Below are positions 1-38,027 of a stretch of DNA of 45,620 nucleotides, in pieces (the first letter of the stretch is position 1; each line of letters starts with the position of its first letter). Source of the stretch: an uncultured Gammaproteobacteria bacterium (GTDB lineage: Bacteria; Patescibacteriota; Microgenomatia; UBA10105; UBA927); the NCBI GenBank assembly GCA_964367095.1, contig CAYIXE010000003.1, forward strand, positions 1-45,620, read 5' to 3'. The notes beneath the pieces are model-generated. The model was not told the DNA's origin and did not search any database. It saw only the letters and a program-made list of their open reading frames with translations. A program made the translations under genes and the position numbers.

Positions 1-54
1 TCAAACGAAAACTGAGAAATCAGAAACTCCCGAAAATTGAGAAGTCAGTTTACA
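1..54. mobile_element. Terminal end (...TTTACA) of an element related to the 36409-36601 MITE, truncated by the window edge
   Basis: AAACTGAGAAATCA (9-22) and AAATTGAGAAGTCA (34-47), 25 bp apart, then GTTTACA. Same architecture as the right end at 36557-36601. Confidence 0.7.
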
Positions 55-33939: not shown

Positions 33940-34593
33940 ATGAAAAAGAAAAAAAATGTTTTGCCTAAACTTTCTGTGGTTTCTGATGCTATTCAAAAAG
34001 AGTACGTGGCCGCGAGTTCTTCCAAAAAACGTTTCGTTCGTATAGTTCCCATTCTTCTTGTTGTTTTGCTTCTCGTACTTTTGGGCATGAACAAGGGAAT
34101 GTTGGTTGCATCACTGGTCAATGGTAAGCCCATATTTACATGGCAGTTTCATGGTGTTTTACGTGATCGATTTGGTCAACAAACCCTGGAGGGCATGATC
34201 GGTGAGATGCTTATTAAAGATGAAGCGAAAAAAGCGAAGATAGTCGTAACAAAAGAAGAAATATCAGCAAAGGAAAATGAAATTGTTGCAAGTCTTGGGG
34301 CAAACGTGTCGCTTGATGATTTATTAAAATTTCAAGGATTGTCCAAAAGCGATTTTGAAAAACAAGTGACGCTGCAGCTGACAGTAGAAAAATTATTATC
34401 TAAAGATCTTGTTGTTTCTGAAACAGACATAGATATGTTTATTGCAACAAGCGGCGCCACGCTGGTAGCTACGGATCCGGCGGCACTTCGTACAGAAGCT
34501 AAACAAGCAATCATCGCAGGGAGCGTGTCGGAAAAACTACAGGAATGGTTTGCAGAACTTCGGCAAAAAGCGAAAGTACTTCGTTTCTTATAA
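33940..34593 (+). CDS. SurA N-terminal/PrsA-like chaperone
   Basis: TM, then ASLVNGKPI, LEGMIGE.LI..EA.K, W..ELR.KAKV; no PPIase domain evident. Confidence 0.78.
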   Translation: MKKKKNVLPKLSVVSDAIQKEYVAASSSKKRFVRIVPILLVVLLLVLLGMNKGMLVASLVNGKPIFTWQFHGVLRDRFGQQTLEGMIGEMLIKDEAKKAKIVVTKEEISAKENEIVASLGANVSLDDLLKFQGLSKSDFEKQVTLQLTVEKLLSKDLVVSETDIDMFIATSGATLVATDPAALRTEAKQAIIAGSVSEKLQEWFAELRQKAKVLRFL

Positions 34594-34596
34594 CCT

Positions 34597-34851
34597 ATGC
34601 GTAACGCGTGGTGGTTGGGTCAAACAAACGATGCGTCTCCAATGATGATTGGTATTATATTGCTAGTACTCTGGTCGGTGTTTTGGACGGGTTTTTCTTT
34701 GTGGTATGCGGCAAAACGAGGAGATAAGGGATGGTTTATTTTTTTCTTAGTCGTTCACACTGCTGGAATCATTGAGTTTTTATATTTATTTTTTGTTGTA
34801 CGAGTATTTGAAAATACGCCTGTTCATAAATCCATACGACGTCATAAATGA
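34597..34851 (+). CDS. DUF5652-like small membrane protein
   Basis: WS.FW.G.SLW.AAKR..K.WF.......T.GI.E..Y. Confidence 0.78.
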   Translation: MRNAWWLGQTNDASPMMIGIILLVLWSVFWTGFSLWYAAKRGDKGWFIFFLVVHTAGIIEFLYLFFVVRVFENTPVHKSIRRHK

Positions 34852-35909
34852 AAACGTGGCAGAAATTAATAAAGAATCCTTCACTGTGGCAGCAGTATTT
34901 TGTACGTGAAAGAGTGCTTCAAGCCATACGATTATTTTTTGAAGGGCAAGGATTTCATGAAGTGGAAACCCCGCTTCTTATAAGACACCCAGCGGCAGAA
35001 AGTTATTTGGAAGTATTTGAGACAACGCTTCTTGATAGAAATAGAAATAAGACCTCTTTATATCTCTCAACTTCCCCAGAAGTGCCGCTTAAGAAATTAT
35101 TAGTGGCAGGTATAGGCAATTGCTTTAGTGTGACGAAAAGTTTTCGCAATATGGAAACGCACAGCGAAACGCATAACCCTGAATTTACCATCTTAGAGTG
35201 GTATCGCGTGGGGGTACCGTACACCGAGGTTATGAAGGATTGTGAAGATCTTTTGCTTTTTATAAATACGTATTTATTGCGTTCCCTAGATACATCCGAC
35301 GGAAGAACAACAAAAGACCTTTTGTATCAAGATGCGCATGTTAATTTATCAAAGCCTTGGGAGCGACTTACGGTAGCTGAAGCATTTTTGAAATGGGGAA
35401 AGATTAATTTTGATGATTTTTTGAATAGAGATAAAGCGAAAAAAATTGCATCAGAAAAAGGATATACGGTTGAGGATCATACGACATGGGAAGAATTATT
35501 TAACCAAATATTTTTAAATGAAATAGAACCGCATCTTGGGCGGGGGAGGCCAACAATTCTTTATGAATTCCCAAGCGCTATGGGAGCTCTTGCAAGAAAG
35601 AAAGATTCTGACCCACGGTTTGCAGAGAGATTCGAATTTTATGTAGAGGGTTTGGAGCTTGGCGATTGTTATGGAGAGCTTACTGATTGGAAAGAACAAG
35701 AGGCGCGATTTGAAGAAGAGTTGCGTGTCATAAAAAATGCGGGAAGAACGACCTATGATTATGATCATAATTTCATAGAAGCATTAAAAGTGGGCATGCC
35801 TGCCACCAGTGGCATAGCGGTGGGGGTGGATAGGCTGATTATGCTTTTTGCCAACACGAAAAAAATTCAAGACACGTTGTTTTTTCCTATTGAGGAATTA
35901 CTTTCATAA
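34848..35909 (+). CDS. epmA: EF-P lysine aminoacylase (EpmA/GenX)
   Basis: Class II LysRS catalytic domain only: EVETP, YLSTSPE, FRN.E....HNPEFTILEWY, ERFEFY, GIAVGVDRL; efp is nearby. Confidence 0.88.
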   Translation: MKTWQKLIKNPSLWQQYFVRERVLQAIRLFFEGQGFHEVETPLLIRHPAAESYLEVFETTLLDRNRNKTSLYLSTSPEVPLKKLLVAGIGNCFSVTKSFRNMETHSETHNPEFTILEWYRVGVPYTEVMKDCEDLLLFINTYLLRSLDTSDGRTTKDLLYQDAHVNLSKPWERLTVAEAFLKWGKINFDDFLNRDKAKKIASEKGYTVEDHTTWEELFNQIFLNEIEPHLGRGRPTILYEFPSAMGALARKKDSDPRFAERFEFYVEGLELGDCYGELTDWKEQEARFEEELRVIKNAGRTTYDYDHNFIEALKVGMPATSGIAVGVDRLIMLFANTKKIQDTLFFPIEELLS

Positions 35910-35915
35910 ATCTTT

Positions 35916-36374
35916 GTGACTATACGACTCGCTACAAAATTTGATTGTGACCAAGTGCTTCATCTTTTAAATCAATTAGGAGAGATAGTAAATGAGCTTG
36001 TGTGCTTTGATCCTGACAATGTGAGAGCGCACGAAATTGGACGTATAAATTATTTGGAGGCAATCAAAAGGGAGGATAGAAAAGTATTTGTTGTAGACGA
36101 GAATGGCAGGATTATCGCAGCGGCAACATTTTTTATCCTGCATGATTTCATTACGGGAAAGCCATTTGCCCATCTTGATGATTTTATCGTTGAGAAAACG
36201 TTGAGGGGCAAGGGCATTGGCACAAAGCTTTTAGAGTTTATTAAACAGTTTGCGAAAGATCACAATATCCACACAATTGAATTAACATCGAGCTTGCCAC
36301 TTACTCGTGCTCACAAATTTTATGAAAAGCGCGGCGGCACGTATGCGCGTAAAGTAATTAAATTTTTAGTGTAA
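35916..36374 (+). CDS. GNAT N-acetyltransferase
   Basis: V...RGKGIGTKLL acetyl-CoA motif A; AHKFYEKRG. Confidence 0.88.
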   Translation: MTIRLATKFDCDQVLHLLNQLGEIVNELVCFDPDNVRAHEIGRINYLEAIKREDRKVFVVDENGRIIAAATFFILHDFITGKPFAHLDDFIVEKTLRGKGIGTKLLEFIKQFAKDHNIHTIELTSSLPLTRAHKFYEKRGGTYARKVIKFLV

Positions 36375-36408
36375 GTTTGGGTACACATTTTAGATATATG
36401 ATATACTT

Positions 36409-36601
36409 TGTAAAGTGATCTCTCAATTTACGTCGTTTTTTGATTTCTCAATTTGCACGGTTTAAATTCTTATAGGCAAAAAGCCTACAACCTGCTCATT
36501 GAGCTTTGTATTTACGTTACAATCAGTCAAGCATACTAAAGGTCTTGCTGATGTGAAAATTGAGAAATCATCTTTTAGGAAAATTGAGAGATCATCTTAC
36601 A
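36409..36601. mobile_element. 193-bp MITE-like element with TGT...ACA ends and a 16-bp target site duplication
   Basis: Left end TGTAAAGTGATCTCTCAATTT versus reverse-complemented right end TGTAAGATGATCTCTCAATTT; inner perfect 14-bp inverted repeat (36441-36454 / 36557-36570); flanking direct repeat GATATATGATATACTT at 36393-36408 and 36602-36617. Confidence 0.85.
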
Positions 36602-36628
36602 GATATATGATATACTTTAGTCATAAAT

Positions 36629-37120
36629 ATGGGAGATAATATTTCTGAATTATTGCAGCCAGGACAAGAAATCCTATCTAAAGAACACCCTGCTCGAAAA
36701 TCAGGAGAATTTCTGCTTGGAGGTATTAATGAGATTGTTCAAAGAGAAGAGATATTAAATAGAGAAGCAAGGAAAAAATTACCATCTAAGATAGGAGTAA
36801 TGAAACAAGTTGGATATGGTGCACTTCTTTATCCGATTACAATATTAGGCGGGAGAATTGGAAGTATGTTATTTCCAGTCGTTGGAGGCTTAGTGGGTCG
36901 TGCTGTGGGCGCTGAAGTTTCTGGAGTGATATATAATCAAGTATTGCGTAGGTTTGACAAAGATTTACCCGCTCTCGAAGGAAAAGATTATCTCGTTGGT
37001 GCCCTCGTTGGTAATCCCGCTATCGCAGGAGGACTTAGGGAAACCTACAATGGCTTCCGATTACTCGCTAATCCTGATGCAATAAGTCACTTAAAGCCAG
37101 CAATAACATTTACTAAATAA
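36629..37120 (+). CDS. Hypothetical protein with Gly-rich hydrophobic segments
   Basis: 163-aa ORF downstream of an extended -10; glycine-zipper-like GGLVGRAVGAEVSG. Confidence 0.7.
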   Translation: MGDNISELLQPGQEILSKEHPARKSGEFLLGGINEIVQREEILNREARKKLPSKIGVMKQVGYGALLYPITILGGRIGSMLFPVVGGLVGRAVGAEVSGVIYNQVLRRFDKDLPALEGKDYLVGALVGNPAIAGGLRETYNGFRLLANPDAISHLKPAITFTK

Positions 37121-37121
37121 T

Positions 37122-37406
37122 ATGGATGTTAAACAAAAAGTTCAGAAAACGTATCTATTTGATCCAAATGAAAAAATTGATCTTTTAGTTCGATGGAATA
37201 GTTTTTCTCAAGAAGAGATTGTACAACTTGGAAAAGTGATTGATGAGTATGATGAGAATTGTAAAATAAATATCGGAGAGTTTCAACAAAAATTTATTTC
37301 GTATATTGATAAAGAGAAGATTCAGTTACAAAACGCTAAAAAAATGAAATCTGTTTATGCAATTGACAAGATTAGAAACGGAATAGTGCCTCTTTTTGAA
37401 GCCTAA
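37122..37406 (+). CDS. Hypothetical protein
   Basis: 94-aa AT-rich ORF starting 1 nt after the previous stop. Confidence 0.65.
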   Translation: MDVKQKVQKTYLFDPNEKIDLLVRWNSFSQEEIVQLGKVIDEYDENCKINIGEFQQKFISYIDKEKIQLQNAKKMKSVYAIDKIRNGIVPLFEA

Positions 37407-37463
37407 CAATCCTTGTGACAAAAGGCCAAACGTGTGATAATTAGCCATTGTTAGGAATTTGTT

Positions 37464-38027
37464 ATGTCATCTATTACCACCGCACAATTTAAGAAGGGAA
37501 TGTTTATCGAGTTTCGTGGAGAGCCAAACCTTCTTACCGACATGACCTTTGTAAATCCGGGAAAAGGATCGGCGTTTGTACGAACAAAGTTAAAGTCGTT
37601 GACAAGCGGGAAGGTAATAGAGTTTACTTTCAAATCTGGGGAATCTGCCAAAGAACTCGACGTCGTGACACGAGAGATGCAGTTTCTCTATAAAGAAAAC
37701 GATGCGTATGTATTTATGGATAACACGTCTTTTGAGCAGTACAATATCAAAGACGCACTTCTTTCGGACTTCGTAAAATATTTGCGTTCCAATGACACCT
37801 ATCAAGTGCTCGTCCTCAATGATGAAGCAGTAGGCGTGCGATTCCCAAAAAAAGTTTGGTTAAAAGTAACCGAGAGTTCTGAAGGTATCAAAGGAAATTC
37901 ATCCTCTGGAGCTACCAAAACCGTGGTGACAGAAACTGGTGCTATCGTGACCGTTCCACTTTTTATTAAAGAAGGGGATACGATAGGTATAGATCCTGAA
38001 ACCGGATCGTATCTTGAACGCGGATAG
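37464..38027 (+). CDS. efp: Elongation factor P
   Basis: VNPGKGSAFVRTKLK, MQFLY, FMD...FEQ, VPLFIKEG...Y..R. Confidence 0.96.
   Translation: MSSITTAQFKKGMFIEFRGEPNLLTDMTFVNPGKGSAFVRTKLKSLTSGKVIEFTFKSGESAKELDVVTREMQFLYKENDAYVFMDNTSFEQYNIKDALLSDFVKYLRSNDTYQVLVLNDEAVGVRFPKKVWLKVTESSEGIKGNSSSGATKTVVTETGAIVTVPLFIKEGDTIGIDPETGSYLERG

Follow-up and report, generated by a model that had tools for sequence, protein, structure and literature searches.

The window examined here, a stretch of 45,620 nucleotides (nt), carries a 193-bp miniature inverted-repeat element (MITE), which very probably belongs to an insertion sequence of the IS481/IS1202 type present in Gottesmanbacteria and other Microgenomatia (ultra-small bacteria of the candidate phyla radiation, CPR), the family of which targets a hexamer located 7 bp off the target duplication. 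The hexamer reads TGTCAA beside the element and TTGACA on the opposite strand, and the promoter to which TTGACA belongs is directed away from the element. The source genome (G000) is an assembly of 1,154,749 bp in 129 contigs with a G+C content of 41%, of which the window is contig C3; the records of the family of this genome carry the title Candidatus Gottesmanbacteria. Coordinates without another label are window positions.

A preliminary description of the window had reported a 193-bp element with TGT and ACA termini, two 14-mers at each end 24 to 25 nt apart, and exact 16-bp repeats on both sides. All of these were seen again when positions 36000 to 37000 were read directly and analyzed with a repeat finder. 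The features of the element are as follows.

36409-36601, plus strand: the MITE, 193 bp, TGT...ACA (sequence reading, repeat finder, and comparison of copies)

36409-36454, plus strand: left end, the TGT terminus and two direct 14-mers (repeat finder)

36553-36601, minus strand: right end, the ACA terminus and two minus-strand 14-mers with a spacing of 24 nt (repeat finder and promoter scan)

36393-36408, no strand: left copy of the target duplication, GATATATGATATACTT, 16 bp exact, which holds TGATATACT (sequence, repeats, and copies)

36602-36617, no strand: right copy of the target duplication, GATATATGATATACTT, 16 bp exact (sequence, list of open reading frames, and copies)

The terminal inverted repeats found by the repeat finder are 21 nt long and 90% complementary (36409-36429 and 36581-36601), and the 14-mer TGATYTCTCAATTT was located at 36416-36429 and 36441-36454 on the plus strand and at 36557-36570 and 36581-36594 on the minus strand. 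The left-end sites read TGATCTCTCAATTT (36416-36429) and TGATTTCTCAATTT (36441-36454) and are 25 nt apart from start to start; the 14-mers of the element ends are presumed to be transposase-binding sites. In the window copy taken by itself, the direct repeat reads 18 nt (36392-36409 and 36601-36618) because the adjoining bases are by chance the same as the final A and initial T of the element. The nine other copies described below fix the termini as TGT and ACA and the duplication as 16 bp. The sole open reading frame (ORF) of at least 40 amino acids that starts within the MITE (36499-36639; 46 amino acids) exits via the right end, in agreement with the earlier proposal of a nonautonomous element. 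The MITE folds into a single long hairpin (z = −7.3), in keeping with its inverted repeats, and no Rfam family matched the 193 bp. Three other identities of the 193-bp element, namely a Tn7-like element, an att recombination site, and an RNA gene, were rejected on the overall evidence.

A BLAST search for other copies, as proposed with the preliminary description, showed that the source genome holds 10 copies of the MITE, 100% identical over 193 bp, and that each of the 10 has its own exact 16-bp duplication, different from all others. With 10 identical copies in 1.15 Mb, each with a different exact 16-bp duplication, the observation in the window is far beyond chance. For all three copies tested (on contigs C54, C28, and C2), two genomes from the genus (G067 and G068) have the unoccupied site with only one 16-mer, and the C2 empty site in G067 was identical in 56 of 56 bases; G067 is 97.7% identical to window positions 34201-36366, and G068 is more distant. 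A search of the 17 other genomes of the genus did not find the MITE in any of them. These results mark it as a mobile element that was amplified recently, not as a conserved structure. The unoccupied allele with a single 16-mer that the preliminary description expected was thus recovered for other copies and not for the window copy: the relatives and 80 genomes of the family are without the whole segment in which it lies, and no contig of four sequencing runs spans the site. Contig depth in run X8 was 51.8 over the MITE and 4.7 in the flanks, which fits about 10 copies and is not itself a copy number. The MITE was also present in contigs of one RNA library (X14), where presence is no proof of transcription. 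The element was confirmed as a real, nonautonomous MITE of a known superfamily.

In a sensitive setting, BLAST with the 193-bp query also returned 46-nt matches (78% identity) at six contig edges of the source genome. Two types of ends could be distinguished, one at the window start (1-54, minus strand) and at the ends of C12, C49, and C120, the other at the ends of C54 and C70. At the C49 and C54 edges, the same 16 nt stand beside the two end types, which shows that these edges flank a single insertion and its 16-bp duplication. The corresponding features of the window are as follows.

1-54, minus strand: outermost 54 nt of the left end of a full-length parent copy, cut by the contig edge, with the TGT terminus at base 54 (BLAST and edge comparison)

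55-70, no strand: 16 nt adjoining the parent left end, presumably a copy of the target duplication, as judged from the edge flanks

No partner of the presumed duplication copy at 55-70 was found, and no TGTCAA-type motif is located 7 nt beyond it. The assembly breaks 51 to 54 nt into every full-length copy, which points to at least four copies in the source genome, the interiors of which are unassembled. Neither in G000 nor in two further genomes (G041 and G032) could the ends at contig edges be followed into another contig, and an exact 43-nt left-end pattern gave no match in genome contigs. A degenerate end pattern matched 25 loci in the species-genome collection, mostly titled Candidatus Gottesmanbacteria with a few titled Roizmanbacteria or Parcubacteria, plus 50 metagenome contigs. 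Complete parent copies of 1,294 to 1,296 bp were present at eight loci (L059, L099, L105, L109, L114, L117, L128, and L134), one of which, L109, is a stand-alone contig of 1,294 bp with ends identical to the G000 edges over 54 + 51 nt. The parent contains one gene, located at 703-1779 in L059, which encodes a transposase of 358 amino acids (P0001). A transposase-bearing copy with related ends, which the preliminary description had anticipated, thus exists in the form of this 1,294-bp element.

The MITE and the parent share only their ends of about 46 to 50 nt, and the MITE has no similarity to the parent interior. A search of the source genome for rve domains returned only an IS3-type element (C34) and an IS481-type gene (C9), neither of which has these ends, and the same search of G041 returned only an IS3-type gene. 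The C34 element (about 1734-2808) has the two ORFs of the IS3 type and the C9 gene (200-1234) encodes 344 amino acids; both are unrelated to the parent. Over 46 nt, the MITE left end is 91% identical to the left end of the variant in G041, 87% identical to that of L059, and 78% identical to that of the element resident in the source genome. We infer that the transposase of the resident element moves the MITE. Another course of events is possible, if rather doubtful, in which the MITE was spread by another variant (similar to those in G041 or L059) that has since been lost from the source genome, and the resident element does not move the stranded MITE. The end identities of 87 to 91% to variants of other genera versus 78% to the resident element would agree with such a loss, as would the resident right outer site (TAACCTCTGAACTT), which is unlike that of the MITE. 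Three of the four resident sites, however, differ from the MITE 14-mers by 0 to 1 base, and the ten substitution-free copies, together with further flanks in other sequencing runs, speak for recent or ongoing movement.

Two observations concern the distribution of the parent. A second, unrelated miniature derivative of 208 bp was found in another genus (L018, 1501-1708; G055 contig C29); it contains the sequences of both ends of the full element, right and left, and has the 16-bp duplication CTGCTCAAGCACATAA. Eleven contig-edge ends (L038, L039, L043, L049, L051, L053, L055-L057, L060, and L061) come from one assembly titled "uncultured Gammaproteobacteria," a title that is unconfirmed, and all other carriers of the parent element are titled as CPR bacteria.

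For the analysis of target sites, the flanks of all ends were pooled (112 ends, of which 78 were distinct after de-duplication by the last 40 nt), with the left end defined as the end upstream of the transposase gene. Outside the left end, a common pattern was found, consisting of (T)TGTCAA, then 7 nt, and then the duplication. The counts for the four kinds of ends, with TGTCAA scored 7 nt beyond the duplication of 15 to 17 nt, are as follows.

Full-length element, left end: 27 distinct flanks, 18 with the exact hexamer, 21 with one mismatch allowed

Full-length element, right end: 31 distinct flanks, 1 exact, 3 with one mismatch allowed

MITE, left end: 10 distinct flanks, 3 exact, 5 with one mismatch allowed

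MITE, right end: 10 distinct flanks, 1 exact, 2 with one mismatch allowed

The background frequency of TGTCAA in the source genome is 3.1e-4 per position, and its occurrence in 16 of 27 flanks at a single fixed position has a binomial P value of 9e-50. Among the 20 insertions with both flanks, the spacer was 7 nt in every motif-bearing case, and the duplication measured 16 bp in 18 insertions, with 17 bp and 15 bp observed once each. TGTCAA plus 23 nt was also read at one more MITE flank, which occurs in a sequencing run only. The hexamer is already contained in the empty sites of G067 and G068 and is therefore part of the target, not of the element. In the information profile of the flanks, the hexamer is accompanied by a weaker A/T-rich block about 17 nt further out, and outside the hexamer the flanks are unrelated to each other. 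In two sets of paired flanks (L123/L126 and L043/L039) and at C70 of the source genome, a TGTCAA-like hexamer (TGTAAA, TGTCAT, or TGTAAT) was observed in inverted orientation 7 nt past the other edge of the duplication; this second hexamer could reflect back-to-back promoters or a weak two-fold symmetry of target recognition.

The motif and its distance are also found with more distant transposases. A protein search of 401 genomes of the class revealed relatives in 7. The elements L136-L138 (59 to 67% identity; 1,282 to 1,289 bp) have TGTCAA, 7 nt, and then 15 to 17 nt before the left end. L141 (44% identity; 1,267 bp) has a duplication of 5 bp, GAAGG, and keeps TGTCAA with its 7 nt, and in L140, the right end of which is missing, TGTCAA is located 14 nt from the left end. 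The hexamer thus anchors the near edge of the duplication at 7 bp, and the far edge follows after either 5 bp or about 16 bp. These two lengths differ by about one helical turn, like the known discrete duplication classes of the superfamily.

It is very improbable that insertion is essentially random and that the link to promoters arose only through loss of insertions within genes. The source genome is gene dense, with 87% of its length in ORFs of at least 120 amino acids, and several copies, including the window copy, have no motif, both of which would speak for such a process; selection, on the other hand, is unable to yield an exact 7-nt offset, a single hexamer, and a left/right bias of 18/27 versus 1/31. 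The binomial P value given above and an offset that is kept with duplications of 5, 15, 16, and 17 bp argue in the same direction.

With TTGACA taken as a −35 box, at least four of the six positions of TATAAT were matched at a distance of 16 to 18 nt in 24 of the 29 motif-bearing events, and TAnnnT was present in 17 of the 29. Several targeted sites are consensus promoters (e.g., TTGACA-16-TATAAT). The corresponding background values were 25% and 14% for all 712 occurrences of TTGACA in the source genome and 51% and 38% for the 140 occurrences outside ORFs of at least 120 amino acids (Fisher's P values of 0.002 and 0.06 against the latter). An ORF starts within 300 nt downstream in 23/29 events, and a start codon lies 30 to 46 nt after the first base of the hexamer in 10/29 (L041, L050, L057, L089, L091, L117, L124, and G000 contigs C7, C41, and C54). 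Judging from these distances, mRNAs with a very short leader or none seem to be common in these CPR genomes. The insertion itself occupies a position about 7 to 23 bp upstream of the −35 box, with no damage to core promoter or gene, and the transposase gene and the target gene are divergent.

The preliminary description had placed the promoter within the duplication, and this reading has to be weighed against the one given here. The extended −10 string that it had noted (TGnTATACT) is present in both 16-mers as TGATATACT (an extended −10-like TGnTAnnnT; TG at 36399-36400 and 36608-36609, TATACT at 36402-36407 and 36611-36616), with a putative promoter function, and TATACT of the right copy ends 12 nt ahead of the ATG at 36629. 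An element that targets −10 regions and duplicates the promoter, with one copy driving the downstream gene and the other reading into the element, would account for this arrangement, and short leaders are common at promoters of these genomes. When the duplications of the 20 paired events were tabulated, TAnnnT occurred in 6, which is chance level (29% of random 16-mers), and an extended −10 occurred in 1, that of the window, compared with 2% by chance; the duplication does not, then, generally copy a promoter as had been proposed. The conserved signal lies outside the duplication, and a promoter scan of 36250-36750 found 4 sites versus 2.3 ± 1.6 in shuffled sequences, which is not significant. 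We consider −10 targeting unlikely. The earlier suggestion of promoter targeting stands for the family, which selects promoters, but does so through a −35 hexamer 7 nt outside the duplication and not through a duplicated −10 box, so that the core promoter is neither cut nor copied; it does not extend to the window copy, which is without the motif. The window copy is one of three motif-less MITE landings, and the −10-like string in its 16-mer happens to be there by chance, beside a short-leader ORF. Given the short leaders elsewhere, TGATATACT may well be the −10 box of the gene starting at 36629, as a local accident.

Each MITE end contains an outward-facing TTGAGA inside a 14-mer site (that of the right end at 36584-36589). 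Together with the flanking duplication, these form −35/−10-like pairs, namely TTGAGA-16-TATGAT at 36584-36611 on the plus strand and TTGAGA-17-TATCAT at 36426-36398 on the minus strand, and hybrid outward promoters at the MITE ends are possible, if not above chance in the scan of 36250-36750.

On balance, we favor the view that a clade of CPR IS481/IS1202-type elements picks its targets by the sigma-70 −35 element, through either the helix-turn-helix (HTH) domain of the transposase or promoter-bound RNA polymerase, with strand-transfer sites 7 bp upstream and a further 5 or 16 bp on. In the mechanism proposed for the MITE, transposase supplied in trans would bind the 14-mers of the MITE ends, and the ends would be joined to the target with a 16-bp stagger, the repair of which would give the 16-bp duplication. 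The machinery would read the heptamer (T)TGTCAA and set the near edge of the duplication exactly 7 bp away, with the left (transposase-proximal) end toward the motif. As TTGACA on the other strand would be the sigma-70 −35 hexamer, the element would land upstream and spare both promoter and gene. The MITE has near-identical outer sites at its two ends and a weaker orientation bias (5 left versus 2 right flanks with one mismatch allowed). A weaker bias in an element with near-identical outer sites is consistent with an orientation of insertion that is set by the identity of the outer site. Such targeting would presumably serve as a safe-site strategy in a gene-dense genome.

The hexamer is most likely read by the DNA-binding domain of the transposase itself, since TGTCAA is one base from the core of the end sites, TCTCAA, and has the same direction as the left-end sites. 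A possible explanation, to which we give tentative weight, is that the element recognizes the holoenzyme-bound promoter (sigma region 4, the alpha subunits, or a DNA bend upstream of −35) and not the bare hexamer, TTGACA standing for strong and highly occupied promoters. The −10 box is indeed commoner at targeted hexamers than at intergenic TTGACA (24/29 versus 51%; P = 0.002), and many targeted hexamers are in a short-leader or leaderless arrangement. The position of the duplicated stretch corresponds to that of the UP-element region, which in sigma-70 promoters is situated upstream of the −35 box. A precedent exists in IS1202-family relatives that sit 5 bp from a XerC-bound site (PMC10132070, in excerpt). 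The hexamer, however, is conserved far above usual −35 boxes (18/27 exact) and the −10 box only loosely, 5 of the 29 motif events have a poor −10 box, and the near match of the motif to the codirectional TCTCAA core fits reading by the transposase.

The 358-amino-acid transposase matched the Pfam rve domain (E = 1.9e-11), with HTH_28, HTH_32, and Mu-transpos_C_2 below their cut-offs. The best NCBIfam model was IS481 (NF033577), with 151.5 bits and under its curated cut-off of 224, followed by ISNCY_2 (NF033594), which we take to stand for the IS1202 group, with 90.1 bits and under its curated cut-off of 250. An alignment of 7 relatives (42 to 100% identity) showed invariant catalytic residues D133, D193, and E233, as well as D153-D154 and Q240; the DD pair thus lies between D133 and D193, and the Q is seven residues after E233. 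Among annotated plasmid genes, the nearest reach at most 29% identity and are labelled as IS481 family or generic DDE transposases. A profile search of PDB sequences gave only weak matches (E = 0.007 to 0.03) to retroviral integrases and the transposase of the IS21-family element IS5376. A DD pair and a Q seven residues after E are described as signatures of the IS1202 family, and 15- to 17-bp direct repeats with TGT ends are described for its ISTde1 subgroup (excerpts of bioRxiv 10.1101/2022.12.17.520857 and PMC10132070). With its rve domain, IS1202 signature residues, and 16-bp duplications, the element is of the long-duplication DDE kind (IS481/IS1202) that the preliminary description had supposed. 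From its sequence, the transposase fits the IS481/IS1202 superfamily, with properties closest to those of ISTde1. Membership in either curated family is not claimed because the protein, at 358 amino acids, is shorter than any listed IS1202 member (394 to 507 amino acids in the excerpts of PMC10132070).

The element resembles the ISTde1 subgroup, as far as this is described in the same excerpts, in its TGT...ACA termini, repeats of 15 to 17 bp (here mostly 16), N-terminal HTH plus DDE domain, Q seven residues after E, DD pair, and extra internal transposase site near the ends (PMC10132070). In size, the parent of 1,294 bp compares with 1,327 bp for ISTde1 and 1,387 to 1,404 bp for ISCARN53, ISCARN62, and ISCARN63, according to the excerpts. 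It is unlike that subgroup, as excerpted, in its shorter transposase (358 versus 394 to 507 amino acids) and in an ISNCY_2 score of 90 against a cut-off of 250, with IS481 scoring higher. Within IS1202, target specificity is ascribed only to the subgroup of ISAba32/ISAjo2, with duplications of 5 to 6 bp, in the parts of bioRxiv 10.1101/2022.12.17.520857 and PMC10132070 used here. These elements (dif/pdif hunters) insert in a fixed orientation at a fixed 5 bp from the site of a host protein and have TGT/ACA ends and a related transposase (PMC10132070, in excerpt), and L141, a distant relative of the present element, also makes a 5-bp duplication. They differ in that the present element uses TTGACA instead of a XerC/XerD site as its target, at an offset of 7 bp and mostly with 16-bp duplications, and that its hosts are CPR bacteria and not Proteobacteria. 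The information profile over 60 nt of flank showed the hexamer and a weak −10 region only and no longer conserved site; no dif model was applied.

Tn7-like elements have TGT...ACA termini and several subterminal transposase sites as well, and they also insert in a site- and orientation-specific manner beside, not inside, a gene feature. Unlike these, the parent has one gene in 1,294 bp, is without TnsA, TnsC, and TniQ, and makes a 16-bp and not a 5-bp duplication. The transposases of IS1202 elements have been modelled as TnsB-like (PMC10132070, in excerpt). With IS481, the element shares a single HTH plus rve ORF, a size of about 1 to 1.3 kb, TGT ends, and the best NCBIfam score; it differs by a score under the cut-off, at most 29% identity to annotated relatives, and a Q where K or R is usual seven residues after E. 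Discrete duplication classes near 4 to 6, 15, and 25 bp are reported for IS481 and the eukaryotic IS481EU elements in the excerpts of PMC10045372. There, IS481 duplications are stated as 2 to 15 bp, mostly 6 bp, so that the 16 bp found here are just past this range and within the class of about 15 bp.

Several points weigh against the proposed reading. De-duplication by the last 40 nt may count orthologous old insertions in related genomes repeatedly. The targeting is a strong preference and not a rule, and it is weakest in the source genome itself. At the window copy, the hexamer position reads GGTACA (3 mismatches) and no motif is present on either side, the MITE copies on C8 and C79 are likewise without a motif even with one mismatch allowed, and the motif is missing at three of the four resident full-length left-end flanks (the window start, C12, and C120). 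The −10 enrichment over intergenic TTGACA is modest (P = 0.002 and 0.06) and could be produced by loss of harmful insertions. At the right ends of L136-L138, no recognizable duplication was found, which could be due to recombination between copies or to chimeric assembly across the repeat. As the parent interior is unassembled in the source genome, the identity of the resident element with L109 rests on 105 nt, and the closer match of the MITE ends to variants in other genera (87 to 91%, versus 78% to the resident element) makes the resident element no more than a candidate mover of the MITE. An AlphaFold model of the transposase, built from a 7-sequence alignment, was unusable (mean predicted local distance difference test score of 53; predicted template modeling score of 0.31).

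By itself, the 193-bp element is unremarkable, being a new MITE from a superfamily that is already known. The trait of the family is precise, oriented insertion 7 bp upstream of TTGACA, a form of site-specific insertion sequence that we did not find described: no insertion sequence targeting −35 hexamers was found in the literature, of which coverage was partial, with ISfinder and the lists of IS1202 elements lying outside it. The family would represent a simple one-protein transposon that is specific in sequence, distance, and orientation beside the commonest regulatory signal of bacteria. Yeast Ty1 and Ty3 and similar retrotransposons insert upstream of genes transcribed by RNA polymerase III, a gene-free safe site in a compact genome. 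If the proposal is true, the CPR elements would be a bacterial counterpart of this promoter-proximal safe-site targeting, and it would explain how transposons persist in gene-dense genomes of 1 Mb. The likeness has its bounds, since Ty1 and Ty3 use a retrotransposon integrase tethered to transcription factors in eukaryotic hosts, and the enzymes are unrelated. If the transposase reads TTGACA, the element would offer a compact model for the coupling of site recognition to a fixed cut position in DDE transposases and would bear on the reason why IS481/IS1202 duplication lengths rise by about 11 bp at a time. Should RNA polymerase be the landmark, the element would be, to our knowledge, the first known bacterial transposon tethered to the transcription machinery. 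Either way, mobile DNA would survive in ultra-small CPR genomes without gene destruction, and the insertions would mark real promoters in unculturable organisms.

The window copy of the MITE lies in a larger segment with its own distribution.

36367-37463, plus strand: strain-specific segment of 1,097 bp containing the MITE and two ORFs (comparison with two same-genus genomes, Pfam, and a search of 80 genomes)

The two ORFs, at 36629-37120 (163 amino acids, with a glycine-rich hydrophobic stretch) and 37122-37406 (94 amino acids), gave no match in Pfam. The segment is flanked by a gene for a GNAT acetyltransferase (35916-36374) and by efp (37464-38027). In G067 and G068, the GNAT gene is followed by 45 to 50 bp and then efp, without the segment, and a DNA search of 80 other family genomes did not find it either.

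Another MITE copy in the source genome is located 108 bp upstream of an exceptionally long ORF on contig C2 (3-48707, minus strand). This single ORF comprises 16,234 codons, runs off the contig start, and would be a giant gene in a genome of 1.15 Mb.

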